64,000 nt of DNA from the NCBI GenBank assembly GCA_026683435.1, contig GCA_026683435.1_4866.1; one strand, given 5' to 3'. A program made the translations under genes and the position numbers. A model generated the notes under the pieces. The model was given only the letters and a program-made list of their open reading frames with translations. It was not told the origin of the DNA and ran no database searches. Shown piece after piece: positions 11,387 to 31,244 of the stretch. Positions within the stretch are counted from its first letter, which is position 1; every line of letters starts with the position of its first letter. The DNA is from a phage.

Positions 11387-12214
11387 TTAGCTGTTATAGT
11401 GGTAGTACGCCACGCCTTTCACGCCTTCCTCATCGATACCCGTTTGGACAACCACGCGGTCGTACGATTTGTTAGCGAACTGAGCGGTGGATGTCGGCAC
11501 ATCCTGAACGGTGTTACTGTTCAGTGGCCCCGCGTAGTTCGGAATACCCAGGTCATCCAACACCTTACGCAAACCAGCCCACTGCGGTAGGCCAGAAGCA
11601 TCTACTGTCAGTAGGTTTTTATACGCGGTAAAGTCAATACCGTACGTCAACAAATCAATACACTTCTTACCGAGAGACGGTGAAATAGGCTCTTGAATCG
11701 CATTCAAGACATCCGATTTCACCGAAGTGTCTAGTACCGGTAAACCACGGTTATAACGCAACGTCGCAGAACCGATATAAGCCGGAGATGTCGATAGCGC
11801 TACGATGTTCTGTGTATTGGTGTAATTTGGGGTATTGGGACCCGCCAGTGGGAGGTTATAGATATCGATTGCAGAGAAGTTTACTCCGTAAGTATCCAAG
11901 AGCACCGAAAAGGCTGAGTGGAGGTTGGGAGCGTCAAACGTGACGAACTGCGCCTGGACAGAAGGACCCCACGGCAATAACCGCGCTAAGTTCACACGGT
12001 CGTAGTAAACGGTGATTGCGTCTCGAAATCCAGAACCCTGAATACCGCGCAAGCGTGCCGACGTATTGCGGTTGTTGGAAGCTGCATTAACGGGAACCTG
12101 TGTCACTTTCTCCACGTAGCAGTTTGCCGGCGACGCTTTAATAGGTAGGTTTGGGTTATCCCGGTTAATGAGGTCAAAGACCAACTCGTTTGACGGCTTA
12201 GCATAGTTGATCAT
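11387..12214 (-). CDS. N-module paralog, 275 aa, C-terminal YYHYNS (C-type end motif)
   Basis: Track start 12217 is TTG; ATG at 12214, 4 nt after upstream stop. MINYAKPSNELVFDLINRDNP...NNRNTSARLRGIQGSGFRDAITVYYDRVNLARLL. Confidence 0.6.
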   Translation of the reverse strand: MINYAKPSNELVFDLINRDNPNLPIKASPANCYVEKVTQVPVNAASNNRNTSARLRGIQGSGFRDAITVYYDRVNLARLLPWGPSVQAQFVTFDAPNLHSAFSVLLDTYGVNFSAIDIYNLPLAGPNTPNYTNTQNIVALSTSPAYIGSATLRYNRGLPVLDTSVKSDVLNAIQEPISPSLGKKCIDLLTYGIDFTAYKNLLTVDASGLPQWAGLRKVLDDLGIPNYAGPLNSNTVQDVPTSTAQFANKSYDRVVVQTGIDEEGVKGVAYYHYNS

Positions 12215-12217
12215 CAA

Positions 12218-13105
12218 TTATACCTCGCTTGGATCGTCCAGATCGTTGAACTGGAGATACAACGTTCCGACGATGGTGGTACAGGTAACAGGCAGTTTCA
12301 ACACCAGCGCATACTTGTACTTCGCGTTTGTCGGCATTGCAACAGGGTCATTCAGACCAACGCTGATAACCTCCGCGCCCGCCAAACCGTAGGAAGCGGA
12401 AGTGGTCGCTACCCATGCAGTACCCGTGATATCTTTCAGCAGGTTAACCATATCCGTCAACGGCTGTCCAGACAGAATACCCGGCTTGTATGCCAGCAGA
12501 GCATCTCGGTACTTAGTGAAGTTGTACGGGTAGGAATAGACCTCTGCAATGACCGCAGTAACATTTTCGGAACCCATCTGACCGTTCGGGTATTTCAGAC
12601 CGGTCAGGACGTTAGTAGTGACCGCAGAGACTAACGACTCATCGCCTTTCACGACTTTAAATGTCGCCTGTCCAACCCAACCGATAGACTCTGGATGTGC
12701 AACAACACGCACAGTACCTTCGGTCTTATCACCGTTCCATTCGATATCTGCGTCCTGCAGGTCAGCTTCTTCCAGAACAAAACCGTAACGTTGGTTCAGT
12801 CCAGGAATGGCCGCATACAAGGTTTCGTTGGATGGGCCGATCGCCAACGTGTCACCAATCAACACTAACAAGTCTTCGACTTTCATGCGGTTGTAGAAGA
12901 CATTTTTCTTACCCGACCAGGTAGAGCCCGTTACCCCATCTGCCGTAATTTTAATTTGCGTGTTACGGTTAGTCAGCGTTTCCTTTTCCGTACCACGGAT
13001 GTCCTTTGGCGTGGACCAGATGATGTCAGTCATCTTAACAGCAAGCGAGTTCTGTGCGTTCACTGCTGCCAACAGGACGTCTTTAGAAGGTTGATAAATA
13101 GCCAT
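12218..13105 (-). CDS. N-module paralog C-type, 295 aa
   Basis: MAIYQPSKD...TNRNTQIKITADGVTGSTWSGKKNVFYNRMKVEDLL...RYGFVLEEADL; C-terminal LYLQFNDLDDPSEV. Confidence 0.6.
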   Translation of the reverse strand: MAIYQPSKDVLLAAVNAQNSLAVKMTDIIWSTPKDIRGTEKETLTNRNTQIKITADGVTGSTWSGKKNVFYNRMKVEDLLVLIGDTLAIGPSNETLYAAIPGLNQRYGFVLEEADLQDADIEWNGDKTEGTVRVVAHPESIGWVGQATFKVVKGDESLVSAVTTNVLTGLKYPNGQMGSENVTAVIAEVYSYPYNFTKYRDALLAYKPGILSGQPLTDMVNLLKDITGTAWVATTSASYGLAGAEVISVGLNDPVAMPTNAKYKYALVLKLPVTCTTIVGTLYLQFNDLDDPSEV

Positions 13106-13115
13106 TCGCTAATTC

Positions 13116-13955
13116 CTAGTTGTTGTAGTGCAACATACACTCGCCGATTACTTTCGGGTCGTTCTGAATGCCGGTAATCAGCAATACGTTATCGTACGCT
13201 TTATTGGCGGTCGCCAACTCACTCGTTTTGTAGCGGGTAATTGTGCAGTTCGTCGGATCAAACGACGGTACCCCACGTGCGACCAATGTGGCCATCAGAT
13301 TGGACGTGTAACCCAAATCAAAGTTACTTCCTACGTCCATTCGCCCGTTCTTAAACGAGGCCATAACCTGCACTTCATCGGTAAAGTCTTCCCCGTACGT
13401 CAAGAAGCCCATGTATTTCTTACCAGTGCTTGCTGCTGCAGGGTGGTTCAAAGCCAACAAGATGTCGTTTACCACGAGGTCTTCGAGGCTATTCTTACCC
13501 CGGATAGACATAAAGGTGATGCTGCCAGTGTATTGGATACAGCTAGCGTTAATACGCATCGTGTTGTTTACGTTCAGATAAACGTATTGTTCTGGGATAT
13601 CATCTGCAACCAGGTTTAATCCATAACGACCGTTCAGGTTCTGCGCAAACGCAGTACGTTTCGACTCCACGTTCAACCAACCGTAGGCATTCGGTGCAGT
13701 TACCTGAGGTGTCATGTTCTTAAATAAGTCGTTCAGCGACAAGCGCTTATAACGGAACGTTTGAGGACCGATATAACCACGACCTTGACGACCACGAATG
13801 ATAATCTCGGTGTTGGCACCGCTTGCTGTCGGTGTGATTGCTTTCGGCGTACCGATGATAGCATTGTCTAAACCCATCGGTAGAACAGCATCCGGGTTTT
13901 CGGCATTAATCGCATCGTACAGATATTGTCGCTGAGACAGACTATATAAAGCCAT
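13116..13955 (-). CDS. N-module paralog C-type, 279 aa
   Basis: Track start 13973 is TTG; ATG at 13955 with GAGGAGG 4 nt upstream (MALYSLSQRQ...). Module ...GRQGRGYIGPQTFRYKRLSLNDLF...RYGLNLVADDI; C-terminal MLHYNN. Confidence 0.65.
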   Translation of the reverse strand: MALYSLSQRQYLYDAINAENPDAVLPMGLDNAIIGTPKAITPTASGANTEIIIRGRQGRGYIGPQTFRYKRLSLNDLFKNMTPQVTAPNAYGWLNVESKRTAFAQNLNGRYGLNLVADDIPEQYVYLNVNNTMRINASCIQYTGSITFMSIRGKNSLEDLVVNDILLALNHPAAASTGKKYMGFLTYGEDFTDEVQVMASFKNGRMDVGSNFDLGYTSNLMATLVARGVPSFDPTNCTITRYKTSELATANKAYDNVLLITGIQNDPKVIGECMLHYNN

Positions 13956-13970
13956 AATAGCCTCCTCGGC

Positions 13971-14012
13971 CAAAAAAGAAAGGAGTAGCCAGGAGGAGGA
14001 TTTCCTCCTCCC
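13971..14012 (-). terminator. hairpin terminator after gene 14025..14936
   Basis: ggaggagg-attt-cctcctcc; minus-strand T-run (plus caaaaaagaaagg). Confidence 0.6.
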
Positions 14013-14024
14013 AGCGAGGCCTAA

Positions 14025-14936
14025 TTAGGCATTAAAGTGCAGGTACATGATACCCTGGAAGTTGGTGCACAGAGTGTCATCCAGCTGCAGCAGCAGAACC
14101 TGGTTGTAAGCAGTGTTTGCACCTTCAACCGGTTTCTTAGGTTCGTCGCCTGAAGCAGTGCCATCGTCAGTAGTAGAACCAACGTACAACACGTTAGCGC
14201 CTTTCAGGTTATAATCCGCAGGCTTATCAGATGCAACCCACAGTTCCGGCACAACTTTATTCAGCTCAACCGGGAATGCAGAGTCGCCAGCGATAACACC
14301 TTTCGCCTGTACTTTCAGGAATGCTGCGATTGCTGTGCAGTCTACACCGTAAGAGTAGATGTAACCCTGACCCTTCGCAGCGCTTGGACCATCTGGGTAA
14401 ACCAGGCCGTCGAGCTTGGTTTGTGTTACCACCAGACTCAGACGTTCACCAACCTGAGGCTTAGCACCGATTTTAACCGGGATGCTGCCCAGATAAGCGT
14501 AGCAGTCTTCTTTGAAAGTAATGACGTGGTCAACCGGTGCTGGGTCCGGATCGTTCGGGTTAGTCAGCGGCGGGTTGGTATTTTCCGGAATAGCCGCCGG
14601 AACGATATCGTCTTCGGTCAGCTTCAATCCGTATTGGGTGTTCAGGGTCGTCAGCAGGTCGGTGGTGGTTTTCGGCAGTTTAACGTCGAGGTATGCGGTT
14701 ACATTACGGAACAGCGCACTGCCTTCCAGGCGATTATAAGTCACGTCCTGAGTACCGATGTACCCGGAGTTCTTTTTCGCAGTCAGGGTCATGCTGGTAT
14801 TGCGATCGGCACCTTCATCGCTAATAGGGGTCGGTGTGCCGAGCGTTATTTTAGAAAGTTCCAGTTCTGCGTCTGGGTTTTTCTCATTAATAAAATCCAG
14901 AACCAGCTTATCGGACGTTTTGTTTAAAGGTTTCAT
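14025..14936 (-). CDS. N-module paralog C-type, 303 aa
   Basis: MKPLNKTSDKLVLDFINEKNP...ADRNTSMTLTAKKNSGYIGTQDVTYNRLEGSALF...QYGLKLTEDDIV; C-terminal MYLHFNA. Confidence 0.6.
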   Translation of the reverse strand: MKPLNKTSDKLVLDFINEKNPDAELELSKITLGTPTPISDEGADRNTSMTLTAKKNSGYIGTQDVTYNRLEGSALFRNVTAYLDVKLPKTTTDLLTTLNTQYGLKLTEDDIVPAAIPENTNPPLTNPNDPDPAPVDHVITFKEDCYAYLGSIPVKIGAKPQVGERLSLVVTQTKLDGLVYPDGPSAAKGQGYIYSYGVDCTAIAAFLKVQAKGVIAGDSAFPVELNKVVPELWVASDKPADYNLKGANVLYVGSTTDDGTASGDEPKKPVEGANTAYNQVLLLQLDDTLCTNFQGIMYLHFNA

Positions 14937-14957
14937 TCTTACTTCCTTTACTCAGGA

Positions 14958-15803
14958 TTAATCAGGGTCGTTGTAATGCAAATACAAACGCCCGCCAAAA
15001 TTCAGACAGTACAACGACAGCTCCACAATCAGCACGTTGTCGACTGCTGGGTTGGTTGGTAATTCCGCTTTGTTACGCCCGTTATAGACGACGACGGCTT
15101 CACGAAGGTTAAAGTCGATAGGGTTGCGGTACGTTGTCCAGTTATCACCGGTGACCGTTTTGAGAATCTGTGCCAGACGTTCTGTGGTTATCGCAGCACC
15201 TAGTCGTTGAAATTCCTCCGCGAAATTATCAAAGCGCCAGGGATACGAATAAACTGCACCTTGACCGACCTTGATGTTAAAATACGGATACTCGTAAGGC
15301 ATCACTGTTAACGGTTCGAAGTTTGCAGGAAGCAACGCATCGCCTGGTAACAGCTGTACCTGTTGTTGCCCTATCCAACCTAAAGAAGTGGGCGTGGCAA
15401 TCAGATCCACACGCCATGTCTTCCTGTCGATTTCGGTATTCACCACATCTGCAGGTTTAAGGCTGAGACCGTAATACTGGTTAATTAACCCGACCACGTC
15501 ATGCATCTGGTAAACAGCATCGAGACGTGCAGGAACACGTAGAGGTTGAATCCCGTCCGGATCGGTAAACATGTCTGCGAAGTCAACACGATCGTAGTAC
15601 ACGGTAGTGGCACCGATAGCATTAGCCGTGGCCAATGCCTGAATGCGCACCATCGCGTTGTGACCGTTAGCTTTTGCCAGGTCTTCGTCAGACGTCGGAA
15701 TCGCAGGGACACCAAAAACAACATCTTCGACTTTTAAATCGAGATTGTTTTCGACGTTAACTTCCGCGATAATAATCTTTTCAGCTGTGGCTAAAAGTGG
15801 CAT
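14958..15803 (-). CDS. N-module paralog C-type, 281 aa
   Basis: ...TTVYYDRVDFADMF...YYGLSLKPADVV; C-terminal LYLHYNDPD. Confidence 0.6.
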   Translation of the reverse strand: MPLLATAEKIIIAEVNVENNLDLKVEDVVFGVPAIPTSDEDLAKANGHNAMVRIQALATANAIGATTVYYDRVDFADMFTDPDGIQPLRVPARLDAVYQMHDVVGLINQYYGLSLKPADVVNTEIDRKTWRVDLIATPTSLGWIGQQQVQLLPGDALLPANFEPLTVMPYEYPYFNIKVGQGAVYSYPWRFDNFAEEFQRLGAAITTERLAQILKTVTGDNWTTYRNPIDFNLREAVVVYNGRNKAELPTNPAVDNVLIVELSLYCLNFGGRLYLHYNDPD

Positions 15804-15813
15804 GTCAAAATCC

Positions 15814-16656
15814 TTATATCGGGAGATAATGAAGGATGAGATTACCGGCGTAGTTGCTGTCCGCAGCTAGCTTGATAATCGCCACACGCTGATAATCGGG
15901 GTTGTAACTATCGTTCGGTGTGACTGAAGTTATCCCCATAAATCGTGCACCTTGGAGTGCAATTTGTTCAGGTTGCGCATTCGCCCCCGTCACATATGCA
16001 AACTTTAATGGCACCACTTCATTCAACAACTCAACATCCGCTGCAGTGATTGCACGGTTGTAAACCCAATCGGTGGTGAACTGTTTTTGCAGTTCAGTCC
16101 AATCGTAACCATACGCCACATACTCAGCCTGCGGTTTACTAGCAACCACGAACGGCGCGATAATTGCGCTGAGGTCAACATCCGTCACCACATCCGCCAA
16201 GTTCGGGAAGAACTTCGCAAAGCGTAAACGGAAACCACCTTGCCAGGCCAAGCAACCGGGCTTAATAGTCACATCGATTAACCAGCTTTCTCCCAAATCT
16301 TTTACTGACTGGTCAACGATATCGTCGGCAACTAAAGACAAGCCGTATTTCGCATTCAGAAACGGCAACAACTCAGAGAGTTTATTTACCGGGTCGGCAA
16401 CGACTACCGGTATTACGTTCCTGAACAGAATTTCCATTTCGATACGGTCGTATTCGAGCGTAACGTTGCCTTTGTAGCCCTTGCCGTTCAACCCGTATAA
16501 GAGCACACGCGTATTCCGGTCAGCGCCAGGCGTTTGGACAGACTCAGGGAAGCCAGTTGCAACCTGCTCCCATGTGAGTGGATTGGCCGTTAATCCGTTC
16601 TGTCGGTTAATAGCATCTAACAACATCTCTTTCGAGGGCTTATCGTAAATAGACAC
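15814..16656 (-). CDS. N-module paralog C-type, 280 aa
   Basis: MSIYDKPSKEMLLDAINRQNG...ADRNTRVLLYGLNGKGYKGNVTLEYDRIEMEILF...KYGLSLVADDIV; C-terminal LILHYLPI. Confidence 0.6.
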   Translation of the reverse strand: MSIYDKPSKEMLLDAINRQNGLTANPLTWEQVATGFPESVQTPGADRNTRVLLYGLNGKGYKGNVTLEYDRIEMEILFRNVIPVVVADPVNKLSELLPFLNAKYGLSLVADDIVDQSVKDLGESWLIDVTIKPGCLAWQGGFRLRFAKFFPNLADVVTDVDLSAIIAPFVVASKPQAEYVAYGYDWTELQKQFTTDWVYNRAITAADVELLNEVVPLKFAYVTGANAQPEQIALQGARFMGITSVTPNDSYNPDYQRVAIIKLAADSNYAGNLILHYLPI

Positions 16657-16666
16657 CTATACCCTC

Positions 16667-17464
16667 CTAGTTGTTAAAGTGTAGGTTGAGGCTGCCCTGG
16701 AAGTTCGTACATTTATCGGTCAGTTGCACTGACACGACTTTCGCGAACGCCGTATTTGCTCCCGGCAAGTCTGCAGGTACGCCGTCGAATACGACAGTGG
16801 CACCACGCAGGTTATACGGGGATGGGGTATCTTCAGCTACCCAAATCTCAGGAACACATTTGTTGAGTTCGATTGCCAACGCCGTGTCATCTACCTCGAT
16901 ACCGACCGCTAAGAGGCTCAGGAAACGAGAGATGTGGCTACAATCGATGTCACGCGAATAGATATACGCCTGACCCAACTGGATGTCCTGGTGATCCGGG
17001 TACAGAAGACCGCTCAACTCTGTATTGGTTACTACTTCTGCCAGAGGTGTAGCAGGTTTCAGCTCGATGACCGCTTGACTTCGCCACTCGTGGGAAGTTT
17101 CAACAGCAACGACTGTGTGCGTCTGTCCATCAATGGGGTTATCTTCGATATCCTCAGGTAAGATAGACAGATTAAAACGCTCGTTAATCGCCGCGAGTAA
17201 GTCGTGCGTGGTTTGCACGTCCTCGTCTCCAAAGGCAACATCGCCTGTAAGGTAGTCCTCTAATGGGCGACGATGGTAGTCCACAATCACTTGCGTACCT
17301 TCATCACCGCGCATCTTCGAGGTAAGGACTACCTCCGAATCACGACCGTCTACTGACACAACCTCCGGCAGTCCGATATCAACATCGTCAAAGGTAAGCG
17401 GTGGGCTTATCTTATTCTCTTCGTTGATGAGTTTTAGCAGATTCTGTTTTGAAGTAAAAGACAT
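16667..17464 (-). CDS. N-module paralog C-type (first gene of array), 265 aa
   Basis: MSFTSKQNLLKLINEENK...; C-terminal SLNLHFNN; divergent N-module. Confidence 0.55.
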   Translation of the reverse strand: MSFTSKQNLLKLINEENKISPPLTFDDVDIGLPEVVSVDGRDSEVVLTSKMRGDEGTQVIVDYHRRPLEDYLTGDVAFGDEDVQTTHDLLAAINERFNLSILPEDIEDNPIDGQTHTVVAVETSHEWRSQAVIELKPATPLAEVVTNTELSGLLYPDHQDIQLGQAYIYSRDIDCSHISRFLSLLAVGIEVDDTALAIELNKCVPEIWVAEDTPSPYNLRGATVVFDGVPADLPGANTAFAKVVSVQLTDKCTNFQGSLNLHFNN

Positions 17465-26588: not shown

Positions 26589-27540
26589 TTTTCGCTATCT
26601 CTTTTTCTTTCTCCTGAAGCGCTTTAAAATGTGGCGCATACGCGCACCACTCTTCCGCGGTAAACGATGTGATACATAACCGGTTAGTATCTTCACTTAC
26701 CGTAAAGGTCGTGTGGTTTCTTTCCGGGTCCTTAAAGTTAGCAAAAGCCGGTACGCCCAAACCCATAGCAGAAATAGCACTACCGAGAGCAGAACACCAT
26801 ACCCGTCTGTAAGCATCGTTGATTTTAATCTCCCATCCCACAGACGGTGTAATACCAAGACTACGATAATTCTGCGACTTTGCCGACGGATGGGCATAAA
26901 CGATGAGCACGTTATTCTCACGGTCTATCGCGAATTCGTAGTTGTTGTTGTTACTGACCTGTACCAACCTACGAATATCTTCCGGCAACTCCTGCCACAT
27001 TTCCAGTTTCTCTTTATCCCACGCAGGTGTTAGAAGCGGTGGAACGCGACCGGCATGATCTTGGAAATACATCAATTCGCTATAGAGGTTCTTTAAGCGA
27101 GCGTACTCGTCTAATGTCCAATCTCCCAGCTCTAGACTATTCTCCAACGCATCTAGCTTATTCCAACCAACAACTGCATAGGCGTGGTGCTGTTTGCGCG
27201 TAATACCACACATCAGTTTAGCGAGACCGTTAACAACATTGCCCTGCTGAACCAGAGGCGACCAGCCGTTAGCATATCCAGCGGTAACGACAGGCTGGAA
27301 GTTCTCTTCCCCGAGCACCGCCCATGTAACATGTTCGGTTTGTGCATGGTGTCTATCCATCAACCGTTCAACAATGGCCACGCTACAAAGAATTTCCATG
27401 AAGTTCGCGTTACCTCCATTCCACATGGAGAAATATGCAGGACGGACATGTCGCGCTTCATTGGCCGGTGCTTTGCACAACAGCTGATACATTATCCAGG
27501 TGGAATCCAACCCTGCTGAAAACGAAACAAGCTTTGTCAT
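26533..27540 (-). CDS. PP-loop superfamily ATP pyrophosphatase-like protein
   Basis: Track start 27609 is TTG; ATG at 27540 forms an ATGA overlap with the upstream stop. N-terminus MTKLVSFSAGLDSTW resembles the SGGxDS PP-loop. Confidence 0.4.
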   Translation of the reverse strand: MTKLVSFSAGLDSTWIMYQLLCKAPANEARHVRPAYFSMWNGGNANFMEILCSVAIVERLMDRHHAQTEHVTWAVLGEENFQPVVTAGYANGWSPLVQQGNVVNGLAKLMCGITRKQHHAYAVVGWNKLDALENSLELGDWTLDEYARLKNLYSELMYFQDHAGRVPPLLTPAWDKEKLEMWQELPEDIRRLVQVSNNNNYEFAIDRENNVLIVYAHPSAKSQNYRSLGITPSVGWEIKINDAYRRVWCSALGSAISAMGLGVPAFANFKDPERNHTTFTVSEDTNRLCITSFTAEEWCAYAPHFKALQEKEKEIAKNAKASKAVDAPTGEVADS

Positions 27541-28022
27541 TGTTTCACCGTATGTAGAAATTGATAACGTGGGGTTTCTTCTGCCACAACATCGAAAGAT
27601 GGGATGCAAACAATCTTCCCATATCCATCGAGTTCTATACGTGGAGAAATCGTGATGGTGCCTGCACGCATCACTTCAATCGCTAACGCTTTGAGTGGGC
27701 CGTGTGGTGTGAATTCACCGCGGAGTTGAAAGTAACCATCGACAACGCCATAGCAGACGTTCGATACATAACCGCAAACGCGTACGAGTTCAATACAACG
27801 TATCCGATCAATGGCGGCCTTTACTTCCCCGAACGATTGACACGGTTTAATCACAGGCGCGTCGAATTCACAGAAAACGTGTCCGCGACGTAATGCTAAC
27901 GATATCGTTTCGTCGGGACGGGCCGAGTCTTTAAATTCGTCGCACGGTATAGACAGTATCAGTCCACTCGCGGATGCCACGGTTTGTGCGGGTATTTCCT
28001 TAACCTCGGTTTGTAGTTTCAT
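27537..28022 (-). CDS. Cys-rich hypothetical protein (161 aa)
   Basis: ORF track; translationally coupled to the PP-loop gene. Confidence 0.55.
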   Translation of the reverse strand: MKLQTEVKEIPAQTVASASGLILSIPCDEFKDSARPDETISLALRRGHVFCEFDAPVIKPCQSFGEVKAAIDRIRCIELVRVCGYVSNVCYGVVDGYFQLRGEFTPHGPLKALAIEVMRAGTITISPRIELDGYGKIVCIPSFDVVAEETPRYQFLHTVKQ

Positions 28023-28112
28023 TTATTCACTCGATAATTAATGGGGTTAAAATCAAATCCATGTAACCTAGGGTTAATAGCGCCACTATCTCAATCGGCG
28101 TGAGGTTTTCCA

Positions 28113-28322
28113 TTATTTTTCCTCTTTCAATATCTCAGCAACCGCTTTGCGACACGCGTTCACAGCGTCAGGATAAGTGCTATTGTTCGGGTCTACTCGA
28201 TCAATACACATTCTGAACGTGCTGGTTGCGGTCTCTCGACGTTCTGCAGTGCGGGTACTGGTACTGACGGCGATATAAATACAGAACAACACAGCAGCTG
28301 CGATCGGCCAACGTAGATTCAT
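28113..28322 (-). CDS. small membrane protein (69 aa, one N-terminal TM helix)
   Basis: WPIAAAVLFCIYIAVS hydrophobic segment followed by a charged tail. Confidence 0.45.
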   Translation of the reverse strand: MNLRWPIAAAVLFCIYIAVSTSTRTAERRETATSTFRMCIDRVDPNNSTYPDAVNACRKAVAEILKEEK

Positions 28323-29020
28323 CAGTAATCCCCTGTTGCCCCTATCGCAGTCGCTACTTTACCGACGACCTCGTCAACCGGAAGTACCACCTCGTCTTTC
28401 TTGCTCACAATCTCTGGTACTTCTTTGACATGTTCAACGGTCACGTCAAACTTCCGAGTATAACCAACAAGTAACTTTGCCATATCTGCACGACTAACGA
28501 ACTGTTGTTCTTCCGACAGATGTAACGACGTATCAAGTAGTCCAGAATGCATGAAGTTTTCAATGAGTTGGTCTTCTTCCTCTTTGAAGTCGTACCGCTC
28601 GTTCGGGGCGGCCACAAATGCATAACCGAAATACTTCCCCTCTTCCTGTTCAGGGCGTAACGATTTAACTAACTCCTCAGCGTGTTCACAGAAGTCCGCC
28701 AAAGTATAATCGTCAAGTGTGGCAACTGCGGTTTCTGTTACAATTTCACCGGTGTCGAGTTCAGTGAGGTGCATCACCCAAAGATGCCATGGTCGCGGTT
28801 GGTCGAACAGCCCACCGACTAACATATCTGTGGCGATAGCACGAATGCGAGGACTTGCCGTAAAGTGAAAACCACGGCCCGCGTACGGCCCGAGGCGACG
28901 AATCGAACTGCCGATAAACGTGATACGATTCAGAGCGTTTTCAGCGACGGTGTGTGCCGTACGTTCTGTGGCAACTTTCGGGTTATACTTTTTGTTACGG
29001 GGTTTCTTTTGCTTAGCCAT
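28322..29020 (-). CDS. hypothetical protein with basic N-terminus (232 aa)
   Basis: Track ORF extends to 29149; ATG at 29020 (MAKQKKPRNKKYNPK...) avoids overlap with the upstream gene. Confidence 0.55.
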   Translation of the reverse strand: MAKQKKPRNKKYNPKVATERTAHTVAENALNRITFIGSSIRRLGPYAGRGFHFTASPRIRAIATDMLVGGLFDQPRPWHLWVMHLTELDTGEIVTETAVATLDDYTLADFCEHAEELVKSLRPEQEEGKYFGYAFVAAPNERYDFKEEEDQLIENFMHSGLLDTSLHLSEEQQFVSRADMAKLLVGYTRKFDVTVEHVKEVPEIVSKKDEVVLPVDEVVGKVATAIGATGDY

Positions 29021-29063
29021 GTTCTGATTCTCTTTGTGGGTTACATTAAATGTGGCGGTGATG

Positions 29064-29621
29064 TTAAAAATAGTCTTTCTTATTTTCGCTACGCGGGAAC
29101 TCAGCGAAGGGGACGGTTCCGTTTTCATCGAGCTTTGCAACCAGCTCACTGAATTTCATGAACGGTACAAAACGGTTATTGCCGGGGAACACCGAACAGA
29201 TTTTCTCAATGCGCTCAATCGTCCAGTTCCCGTTTTCAGGATCAAGGTCAGGGTTTAATGCGAGGTGCTCAATAAAGGTCGACAGCAGCGACGATTCTCT
29301 ATCTTCGGGAATCACCACTACGCGATGATGACTGTGGGTTGAAACCAAACGATAGTTCGGCCCCGCTAACTTGACGTCTAAGATTTCACCCCCTGCTCGA
29401 ATCAACGTACCGGCGTAAGTGATTTCTTCATGACGCAGGTTATCCTTACCCGTGTTCAGTACGTCCGTTAACATCCGTACGTTTTCCGTTGGGAACCACC
29501 AACCGTGTATGGTGAAGTGTTCTTCTGGGTTACTGGGCATGGGTAGGTTTAAGCCAACGTGGTTCGTGTTGACGTAAATCTGGTCGTCGATAATAACGCC
29601 TGAGATATAAACGTTATTCAT
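29064..29621 (-). CDS. hypothetical protein (185 aa)
   Basis: ORF track; ATGA-type overlap with upstream gene. Confidence 0.6.
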   Translation of the reverse strand: MNNVYISGVIIDDQIYVNTNHVGLNLPMPSNPEEHFTIHGWWFPTENVRMLTDVLNTGKDNLRHEEITYAGTLIRAGGEILDVKLAGPNYRLVSTHSHHRVVVIPEDRESSLLSTFIEHLALNPDLDPENGNWTIERIEKICSVFPGNNRFVPFMKFSELVAKLDENGTVPFAEFPRSENKKDYF

Positions 29622-30142
29622 TTACGCAAATCCTCTCTGTAAACCACGTCGCATTTACGACTGGTCATGGGGTCAATGTACGATACCAACTGAACGATGT
29701 TCTTCGGCTCCATCCCGCAAGCCCAACCACAGATTGCTAAATCCCCTCCGCTACCAAACCCAATAGGTGCACGCAAGTCCAGCTCATCAACCATCAGTAT
29801 TTTGTTGGGTTCTGGCATGTTGGTGTTCGGGTCTTCCAACGACATCATGGAGTTATGCAATTTAAAGGATTTGGTGCGGGTCATTATCAGCAACGTATCG
29901 AATGCAATGAACTGGTTGATAAATGCTTCCGCTGCTTCGCGTGCTTTACGCTTGCCAAATACGAAAGCGTAGACCGCCTTGTCGAGTTTTACACGTTGTT
30001 CGGTAGTTGGGTGGCTGGAACCAAAGAAATACGCTATACGGCCTTTTAAGACCTGTATTTTCGTATCATCAACAACCATTCCATTCAGCAACACTGCGCG
30101 GTCACCAACGAGGTAGTCTTGAGTGAATAATACCGTGGTCAC
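29618..30142 (-). CDS. HslV/proteasome-beta-like Ntn-hydrolase (tentative)
   Basis: GTG start with AAGGAGG SD; N-terminus M-TTVLFTQDYLVGDRAV (compare HslV TTIVSVRRNGHVVIAGDG) and PIGFGSGGDLAI (compare HslV IAIGSGG). Confidence 0.4.
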   Translation of the reverse strand: MTTVLFTQDYLVGDRAVLLNGMVVDDTKIQVLKGRIAYFFGSSHPTTEQRVKLDKAVYAFVFGKRKAREAAEAFINQFIAFDTLLIMTRTKSFKLHNSMMSLEDPNTNMPEPNKILMVDELDLRAPIGFGSGGDLAICGWACGMEPKNIVQLVSYIDPMTSRKCDVVYREDLRK

Positions 30143-30152
30143 GCGACCTCCT

Positions 30153-30194
30153 TAAAAAAGAAAAAAGACGTCCTACTCCCGAAGGAGTAGGACA
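30153..30194 (-). terminator. hairpin terminator after gene 30200..30544
   Basis: gtcctactcc-cgaa-ggagtaggac preceded (plus) by aaaaaagaaaaaag. Confidence 0.7.
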
Positions 30195-30199
30195 CCGAA

Positions 30200-30544
30200 T
30201 TAGAAGTGCTTACGGAAGATAGACTCGTTGCAGGTCTCCCCACGCGTCTTACCACGAGACACGGTGGTTTTGTTTGCAGCAGTTTTACCATCACCCACAG
30301 CGGTCTTCGCCAGCGGCAGACGTTCGCTTGCACCACGGAATGCGTAGTAGCGAATGTTTTCTGGGGCAGCGACATCGCCTTCGAACTGGAAGGTGATACC
30401 TTTACGCAGTGACTTGTAGGTGTAGCCTTTCAAGTCCAGCGTCTGCGGCAGTGCATTTTCATCGGCACCATGTTGGTAGTGGATAACCGTACCTACACGT
30501 TTGATGACGATATACATCTGCGCTGCTTTTGGTGCTTTGGCCAT
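30200..30544 (-). CDS. small, apparently highly expressed protein (114 aa), N-terminus MAKAPK
   Basis: ATG at 30544 with AAGGAG SD; strongly biased codon choice (ctg, cgt, ggt, aaa); own promoter-like element and terminator. Confidence 0.65.
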   Translation of the reverse strand: MAKAPKAAQMYIVIKRVGTVIHYQHGADENALPQTLDLKGYTYKSLRKGITFQFEGDVAAPENIRYYAFRGASERLPLAKTAVGDGKTAANKTTVSRGKTRGETCNESIFRKHF

Positions 30545-30592
30545 TCTCGATACTCCTTATAGATTAAAATGTGAGGGAGAAAACAATCTTCT

Positions 30593-30618
30593 CCCCTAGA
30601 TAACATCTATCTGAAAAG
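30593..30618 (-). promoter_or_regulatory. promoter/operator-like element, copy 3
   Basis: Plus cccctagataacatctatctgaaaag; leader stem gggagaa...ttctccc. Confidence 0.5.
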
Positions 30619-30625
30619 TAATGCG

Positions 30626-30952
30626 TTAGAGGCGGATTTGCAGCTGGATAGGATCGCTGTTTTCTCTGTGGGTATCAGGCCAGCAGAAAATACGATGATG
30701 TACGCGACTTATCTCAACCACTAACCCGATAGCGGGTACAAACAGGAACACGTTCAGCGGCATGGTGAAGTCAATCTTACTTTCAAGATTGGTGAAGTGG
30801 ACTTCTTTGTTATCCACCCCAATCACCTGTGCGTACACCTGCCGTGCTTCCGGCGGACACCCTAACGACTTCTGAAACGCAGACTGCATCCGAATGAGTA
30901 GCTCACTCGGCGACAGTTCATCGCGGACATCAATGAGGGATGGGCTCGACAT
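30626..30952 (-). CDS. hypothetical protein (108 aa)
   Basis: ORF track. Confidence 0.55.
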   Translation of the reverse strand: MSSPSLIDVRDELSPSELLIRMQSAFQKSLGCPPEARQVYAQVIGVDNKEVHFTNLESKIDFTMPLNVFLFVPAIGLVVEISRVHHRIFCWPDTHRENSDPIQLQIRL

Positions 30953-31244
30953 GGTGGTTGGTATCCAGTACGAAGGAGTTCTCGCCGGTCTTTTTCGCCA
31001 GCGCCCACATCCACTTGTCGGTGGACTTGTCGTGCCACGATGCTAACCACACGCCATCGACAATGCCTGCGGTGTCAACTTCCGGGTGGAACAGCATGTA
31101 TTCGTTTTCTTCCGCATCGAGGACAACGAACTGCCCTTCCTCCATACGGTCGAAGTTAGCGACACCAACGGTAATCGGTTCCGCATCGACAGAAAGGGTC
31201 ACTTCACGTTTTGGCAGGTCACGATGAATAGCACTTAACCACAT
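30930..31244 (-). CDS. hypothetical protein (104 aa)
   Basis: ORF track. Confidence 0.55.
   Translation of the reverse strand: MWLSAIHRDLPKREVTLSVDAEPITVGVANFDRMEEGQFVVLDAEENEYMLFHPEVDTAGIVDGVWLASWHDKSTDKWMWALAKKTGENSFVLDTNHHVEPIPH

Follow-up and report, generated by a model that had tools for sequence, protein, structure and literature searches.

A divergent HslV/proteasome-like N-terminal threonine hydrolase predicted in a Seoulvirus-type jumbo phage, with a conserved 185-aa partner gene

This study provides evidence from family profiles, structure prediction and residue conservation that a phage gene encodes a divergent HslV/proteasome-like Ntn hydrolase, in which a complete catalytic set is predicted. 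The gene lies in a stretch of 64 kb, hereafter called the window, which belongs to an SPN3US-like (Seoulvirus) jumbo-phage genome. Taken as a whole, the explanation that we regard as probable is that the product is a catalytically competent, divergent threonine peptidase of the HslV/proteasome-beta Ntn type, and its role is likely selective proteolysis during infection. The homology is only detectable with family profiles and structure. The annotation extends a label already present on related GenBank records, and the HslV-like call is correct but fairly ordinary.

Results

Gene, start codon and relatives

The HslV-like open reading frame is a real gene and not a chance ORF. The reverse complement of positions 30143-30153 reads AAGGAGG-TCGC and is followed by GTG, with a Shine-Dalgarno element that is perfect over 7 nt; direct reading thus bore out the GTG start and the strong AAGGAGG that the initial annotation had described, on the minus strand, which had been left unstated. 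The product begins M-TTVLFTQDYLVGDRAV, exactly as given there, and the second segment quoted, PIGFGSGGDLAI, was found at residues 126-137. No longer start is possible, since the stop-to-stop frame reaches only 3 codons further upstream. The coordinates of the gene and of the features discussed below are collected in Table 1.

The protein matched PHROG 23394 at 1.3e-53, a family that carries the label 'unknown function'. HMMER, run exhaustively over 1.84 billion representative proteins, returned 43 relatives among these representatives at E<=1e-3; almost all are 160-185 aa long and align from residue 1. The closest product, 97% identical, is encoded on a metagenomic contig from Logan (P0001/L007) that is itself 96% identical; against this contig the dN/dS of the gene is about 0.18, a value based on small counts (9 synonymous and 6 non-synonymous changes). 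The possibility that the gene is a substitution hot-spot compared with its flanks was rejected, as binning of the whole 5.8 kb placed it near the regional average.

Table 1. Positions in the window of the HslV-like gene, its predicted functional residues and neighbouring features
Feature	Position	Strand	Remarks
HslV-like N-terminal-threonine hydrolase CDS	29618..30142	minus	174 aa, GTG start at 30142-30140
Shine-Dalgarno AAGGAGG	30147..30153	minus	Read from the sequence; 4-nt spacer to GTG (30140-30142)
Thr2 codon, predicted nucleophile (= Thr1 of the mature protein)	30137..30139	minus	Thr 38/41, Ser 2/41; aligned to E. coli HslV Thr1
Asp14 codon (= Asp17)	30101..30103	minus	41/41; aligned to GD motif of HslV
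Lys28 codon (= Lys33)	30059..30061	minus	Lys 39/41; aligned to HslV Lys33
Gly130-Ser131-Gly132 codons (= proteasome Gly128-Ser129-Gly130, HslV Gly123-Ser124-Gly125)	29747..29755	minus	Both Gly 41/41, middle Ser/Thr 40/41; aligned to HslV GSGG
Asp157-Pro-Met-Thr160 codons (= proteasome Asp166 and Ser169)	29663..29674	minus	Asp 37/41, Ser/Thr at D+3 35/41; aligned to T. brucei HslV D-V-F-S
Downstream 185-aa partner gene	29064..29621	minus	ATG overlaps HslV-like TGA as ATGA at 29618-29621; PHROG 25529 'unknown function'
Upstream 114-aa gene	30200..30544	minus	Homolog of 194-aa Machinavirus protein, tblastn 48% identity; PHROG 12339 'unknown function'
Terminator-like hairpin, 13-bp stem, UUCG loop, T-run	30167..30196	minus	Found by scan; between the upstream gene's stop and the HslV-like Shine-Dalgarno
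Mosaic module with HslV-like gene and partner	29020..31075		No SPN3US alignment; Machinavirus-like (blastn vs SPN3US and pSal-SNUABM-04 loci)

Homology and predicted fold

PHROG 1040, labelled 'peptidase HslV family', matched the protein at 2.4e-9; such a label is not independent proof, and the homology was therefore tested separately. Single-sequence searches with the protein against Pfam, NCBIfam and PDB sequences returned nothing relevant, and a thin 7-sequence profile gave no HslV match in the PDB. The gathering score of Pfam PF00227 was reached neither by the window protein nor by any of 41 relatives, and the NCBIfam HslV equivalogs TIGR03692 and NF003964 (cut-offs 157.75 and 137 bits) gave no match at E<=1.

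The working profile was built from these 41 diverse relatives, none of which matches PF00227. When it was searched against all PDB sequences, the top 18 matches comprised only HslV and proteasome beta sequences: the best was HslV of T. brucei (3.4e-9), 13 more HslV sequences appeared at 3.6e-4 to 5e-3, and four were proteasome beta sequences (the best being archaeal beta 3h4p, at 2.6e-3), while BPH was absent from these sequence-profile matches. Comparison of the same profile with E. coli HslV by hhalign gave an E of 4.3e-6 and put the Met-Thr-Thr, the [AG]-D motif, Lys33 and the G-S-G-G of E. coli HslV in register, the H1/H2 region being aligned with low confidence. The interior of the E. coli HslV sequence used in hhalign was confirmed against an annotated Salmonella HslV.

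An AlphaFold model obtained from 11 sequences had a pLDDT of 41 and was discarded. The predicted model that was analysed adopts the alpha-beta-beta-alpha sandwich of the proteasome/HslV superfamily (MEROPS family T1) with an S1-S11 core and flanking helices H1-H4 in the canonical element order; H1 spans residues 47-62 and H2 residues 65-79, the loop after H2 comprises only 3 residues (80-82), and a C-terminal H5 is missing. HslV is the closest relative both by sequence profile and by fold, although the TM-scores to HslV are only 0.58-0.60. Profile comparison and structure prediction against HslV, the check that had been proposed, thus recovered an Ntn fold, and the earlier reading as an HslV/proteasome-like Ntn hydrolase is supported by the family profile, hhalign, the predicted fold and residue conservation together. 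The modest TM-scores and the curated Pfam and NCBIfam models that gave no match count against the best explanation.

Predicted active site

Conservation was counted in 41 family sequences, mostly about 15-30% identical to the window protein. The resemblance to an N-terminal Thr nucleophile, first noticed in the single sequence, extends across the family: the position is Thr or Ser in 40/41 and aligned to HslV Thr1. The same holds for the GSGG loop resemblance, with G-[ST]-G in 40-41/41 and in register with HslV, and the other residues of the triad named at that stage were located at Asp14 (41/41) and Lys28 (39/41), aligned to HslV Asp17 and Lys33. In the column of the oxyanion hole (proteasome Gly47), Gly is present in 33/41, the window protein's Gly41 lying one position off in the MAFFT alignment. 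A literature search for a described contact of Lys28 in HslV returned no paper.

Met-Thr or Met-Ser stands directly at the start in 39 of the 41 family members, which argues that the protein is made without a propeptide. In bacteria, an initiator Met that precedes Thr is cleaved off by methionine aminopeptidase, and E. coli HslV matures in this way.

Comparison with known proteasome homologs

HslV (ClpQ; MEROPS T1B; TIGR03692) is of similar size, 175 aa versus 174 aa for the window protein. Like HslV, the window protein starts Met-Thr-Thr without a propeptide, has equivalents of Asp17, Lys33 and G-S-G in register, has a short loop after H2 and lacks the C-terminal H5. Unlike HslV, it is only 12-17% identical to HslV structures and matches neither the equivalogs nor PF00227; its gene has no hslU neighbour and is paired instead with an unrelated 185-aa gene; the proteasome-like D-x-x-[ST] motif after H4 is kept; and a 12-residue low-confidence loop (residues 100-112) is present. 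HslV proper was rejected on the equivalog result, the identity to HslV structures and the missing hslU neighbour.

A short loop after H2 is characteristic of unfoldase-gated HslV, and a long acidic one of BPH (Fuchs, Alva & Lupas 2021, PMC8665760); the loop of the window protein has 3 residues, in contrast to the long, highly acidic pore loop of BPH. The phage-associated group I proteasome homologs PPH, AAH and CPH were catalogued in the same work (Fuchs, Alva & Lupas 2021, PMC8665760), and the window protein resembles them as a compact, HslV-related phage protein without propeptide and without S12/H5. PPH itself was rejected, as it is by its published description about 140 aa long without H2, versus 174 aa with H2 here. 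The beta subunits of the 20S proteasome differ in their propeptides, H5 helix and alpha-ring partners. In connectase, H1/H2 are missing and two helices are inserted between S3 and S4, whereas the window model has H1 and H2 and no such insertion.

The direct homologs of the window protein are found in Machinavirus (48-50% identical) and Derbicusvirus (about 30%), in the same neighbourhood and with the same coupled partner. The Machinavirus and Derbicusvirus genomes also carry an HslU-like AAA+ gene, unlike the window.

Genomic setting

The flanks of the HslV-like locus are 94-98% identical to SPN3US, SPLA5c and SEGD1, and a mosaic module of about 2 kb lies between them. This module shows 73-89% nucleotide identity to Machinavirus in patches, and about 48% amino acid identity for three consecutive genes, namely the 114-aa gene, the HslV-like gene and the 185-aa gene. 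The proteins encoded at the module position in SPN3US, gp152 and gp153, are unrelated. The segment 29020-31075 looks like a cassette exchange inside a variable region of small genes. Since a strong terminator-like hairpin lies upstream, the HslV-like gene and its partner would be either read through or the start of a new transcription unit.

Several minor observations were made in the same region and elsewhere in the window. The divergence hot-spot between the window and the Logan contig, at 30659-31158 (103 differences in 500 nt versus about 2-4% elsewhere), falls at the left edge of the mosaic module, in the genes 30626-30952 and 30930-31244. A 161-aa ORF at 27537-28022 (minus strand) matches PHROG 7478 'head maturation protease' at 8e-48, and its SPN3US homolog is so named in RefSeq; as neither Pfam nor NCBIfam supports this name, the short protein may have been over-annotated. 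Seven consecutive ORFs of 265-303 aa at 11387-17464 (minus strand) resemble a tandem paralog array, possibly corresponding to the virion-structural paralogs annotated in related phages.

The 185-aa partner

An ATGA stop/start overlap is a classic arrangement for translational coupling, and from this overlap the 185-aa partner is predicted to be translationally coupled to the HslV-like gene. A partner homolog stands directly downstream of the HslV-like gene in each of the four lineages that have this HslV-like type, namely the window together with the 96%-identical Logan contig, Machinavirus, Derbicusvirus and L017. The identity to the window's partner is 47% in Machinavirus and 22% in Derbicusvirus; the L017 partner, a sequence outside the building set of the partner HMM, matches that HMM at E 6e-68 and again shows the ATGA overlap. 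The neighbour of a more distant family member, L006, scored -0.1 bits against a partner HMM built without L006. Pfam, NCBIfam and the PDB contain no relative of the 185-aa partner. The suggestion that the partner might be a degenerate, alpha-like paralog of the peptidase was rejected, the hhalign probability being 0.1%.

HslU-like ATPases in related phages

No HslU-like gene or remnant of one was found within the 64 kb window. Machinavirus, Derbicusvirus and L017 have an AAA+ gene on the same strand, 1.8-2.4 kb downstream of the HslV-like gene. By sequence, its product is a true homolog of HslU: both halves align with Salmonella HslU at 30-47% identity, and a Walker A motif is present. The syntenic slot in the window, between the genes at 28113-28322 and 27537-28022, measures only 90 bp (28023-28112), and the Seoulvirus MET_P1_082_240 (a Salmonella phage; L012 10001-11761) carries a full HslU-like AAA+ gene in that slot. 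The HslU-like gene appears to have been gained or lost repeatedly in the Seoulvirus lineage. Salmonella phage JN03 retains a 68-aa N-terminal remnant of it. RAY, MET_P1_082_240, Caitlin and Kwan all carry an HslU-like gene without an HslV-like member of the window family within 10 kb.

The C-terminal tail of HslU docks on HslV and is sufficient for HslV activation, and the pocket on HslV that receives it comprises Phe54, Phe57, Ala79/Lys80 and Gln114 in E. coli numbering (PMC6429459). The host tail EDLSRFIL was confirmed from the Salmonella HslU record, and an EDLSRFIL-type docking tail (...[FY][IL][LI]-COOH) was missing from all seven of the seven phage HslU-likes examined. In these phage proteins (L003, L004, L005, L011-L014), a near-C-terminal motif, G[FY]DI[RT]GxTLR, with variable ends was observed in place of EDLSRFIL, and RAY gp116 lacks even this motif. 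The HslU-like protein of RAY has a nuclear location (PMC10299810). Because the phage HslU-likes lack the docking tail and HslU-like genes occur without a nearby HslV-like gene, the association of peptidase and ATPase in phages is suggestive and not canonical. The absence of an HslU-like gene from the window, the tail-less phage HslU-likes and the HslU-like genes that stand alone were all counted against the best explanation.

Discussion

Concerning the mechanism of a catalytically competent HslV/proteasome-like peptidase, the product would first be deformylated, and the host methionine aminopeptidase would then take off the initiator Met, as Thr is a permitted penultimate residue; this removal would expose Thr as residue 1. 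The Thr hydroxyl would attack peptide bonds in a triad with Lys28 and Asp14, with Ser131, Asp157 and Thr160 positioning the nucleophile and a conserved Gly (G41) possibly providing the oxyanion hole. The protein probably forms rings with the active sites inside, as suggested by the analogy with HslV and by the very short loop that follows H2. Substrates would then have to be admitted by a gate-keeper or activator, which could be the co-translated 185-aa partner, host HslU or, in related phages, the phage HslU-like AAA+ protein about 2 kb downstream. For the window's phage, this leaves a peptidase that acts by itself or together with the 185-aa partner, host HslU or a factor encoded beyond the window. 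The literature searched yielded neither data on the activity, maturation or assembly of this protein or its phage homologs nor an experimental characterisation of any phage-encoded proteasome homolog.

How the peptidase is activated can be read in more than one way. An HslUV-type double hexameric ring, docked on and activated by the tails of Salmonella HslU (EDLSRFIL) and so redirecting host ATP-dependent proteolysis, is possible but doubtful. HslV is the closest relative by profile and fold and has a similarly short loop after H2, the window lacks a phage AAA+ partner, and the Salmonella tail, confirmed from its record, is of the kind sufficient to activate HslV (PMC6429459); however, the alignment to HslV in the H1/H2 region, on which an assignment of the HslU-tail pocket depends, is of low confidence, the HslV equivalog models do not recognise the protein, and the conserved neighbour is a different gene, the 185-aa partner. 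That partner is central to another reading, in which the peptidase and the co-translated 185-aa protein, acting as regulator, adaptor, cap or inhibitor, would form a phage-specific protease independent of HslU. The ATGA overlap and the adjacency of the two genes persist in the window and the Logan contig, Machinavirus, Derbicusvirus and L017 despite a partner identity of 22-47%, and the pair is retained in the window's phage though the HslU-like gene is absent. Against this, no characterised protein shows detectable homology to the partner, which does not stand beside the more distant family member in L006, and the two genes may be adjacent simply because they are inherited as a module; we therefore hold this HslU-independent protease as tentative, and rather unsure. 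An extended form of it, in which the peptidase and partner constitute an HslU-independent cassette that moves between nucleus-forming jumbo phages and serves to destroy particular host proteins (e.g., defence or stress factors) or phage proteostasis, appears somewhat unlikely.

Two further explanations retain the proteasome fold and give the protein another function. A non-proteolytic or non-compartmentalised function, such as that of a connectase-like ligase/transpeptidase or a monomeric amidase, is decidedly unlikely: the window model is the opposite of connectase both in H1/H2 and in the S3/S4 insertion, and HslV, BPH and the beta subunits all outscore connectase. The resemblance to HslV and the absence of a phage unfoldase from the window would also agree with a decoy whose catalysis is irrelevant and which acts by titrating host HslU or by poisoning the HslV rings of the host. 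A pure decoy, however, would not need a conserved active site, and 41 proteins that are only about 20-30% identical to one another conserve the entire active-site set; this decoy function is therefore highly improbable.

With an active threonine peptidase, a jumbo phage could break down defence or regulatory proteins of its host or control the turnover of phage proteins, and the strictly coupled 185-aa partner would be the obvious candidate for a regulator. The window instance is informative in two respects, as it separates the peptidase-partner pair from the phage HslU-like ATPase, which is present in all other lineages examined, and shows the pair moving as a cassette of about 2 kb.

The following data on HslV-like genes were found in phage records and the literature. 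In Machinavirus, gp125 of pEa_SNUABM_43 is annotated in GenBank as 'putative HslV-like ATP-dependent protease', and in Derbicusvirus, CR5_121 and Phobos gp123 are annotated as 'peptidase HslV family'. For pSal-SNUABM-04, Kwon et al. (2020, PMC7823757) reported two HslV genes, ORFs 1 and 116, and recognised no HslU; the GenBank record of this phage notes cd01913/PF00227. ORF 116 is the homolog of the window gene (48.6% identical) and belongs, like the Machinavirus and Derbicusvirus proteins just named, to PHROG 1040. ORF 1 represents a distinct, shorter type (about 157-159 aa) of SPN3US-like and Machinavirus phages, at another genomic position, although it matches the family HMM at 2.5e-15 and thus belongs to the same superfamily. 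The window-type gene is the rarer of the two: the 19 records in which it was found are without exception from Machinavirus or Derbicusvirus. The ORF 1 type was found in 62 sequenced phages, among them SPN3US and essentially every Seoulvirus genome. In SPN3US (NC_027402.1), the gene at 1186-1665, a position outside the window and near the conventional genome start, encodes a protein of about 159 aa of the 'peptidase HslV family'.

No second HslV-like paralog, including one of the ORF 1 type, was found within the window. As the SPN3US-like phages all carry the ORF 1 type, the window's phage probably encodes two proteasome-like peptidases; if the reading of peptidase and partner as a mobile module is true, this phage would run the window type alongside the Seoulvirus backbone's own ORF 1 type. 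Proteasome-fold proteins gave 35 viral structure matches in BFVD at E<=1e-3, and with the 62 phages that carry the ORF 1 type, these data indicate that phage proteasome homologs are widespread.

A last observation concerns a Salmonella houtenae WGS record in the phage collection (L016), whose contig is bacterial. Its HslV CDS at 997-1491 starts at an internal Val (VVIAGDG...), so that the start is mis-called and the catalytic N-terminal Thr is omitted.
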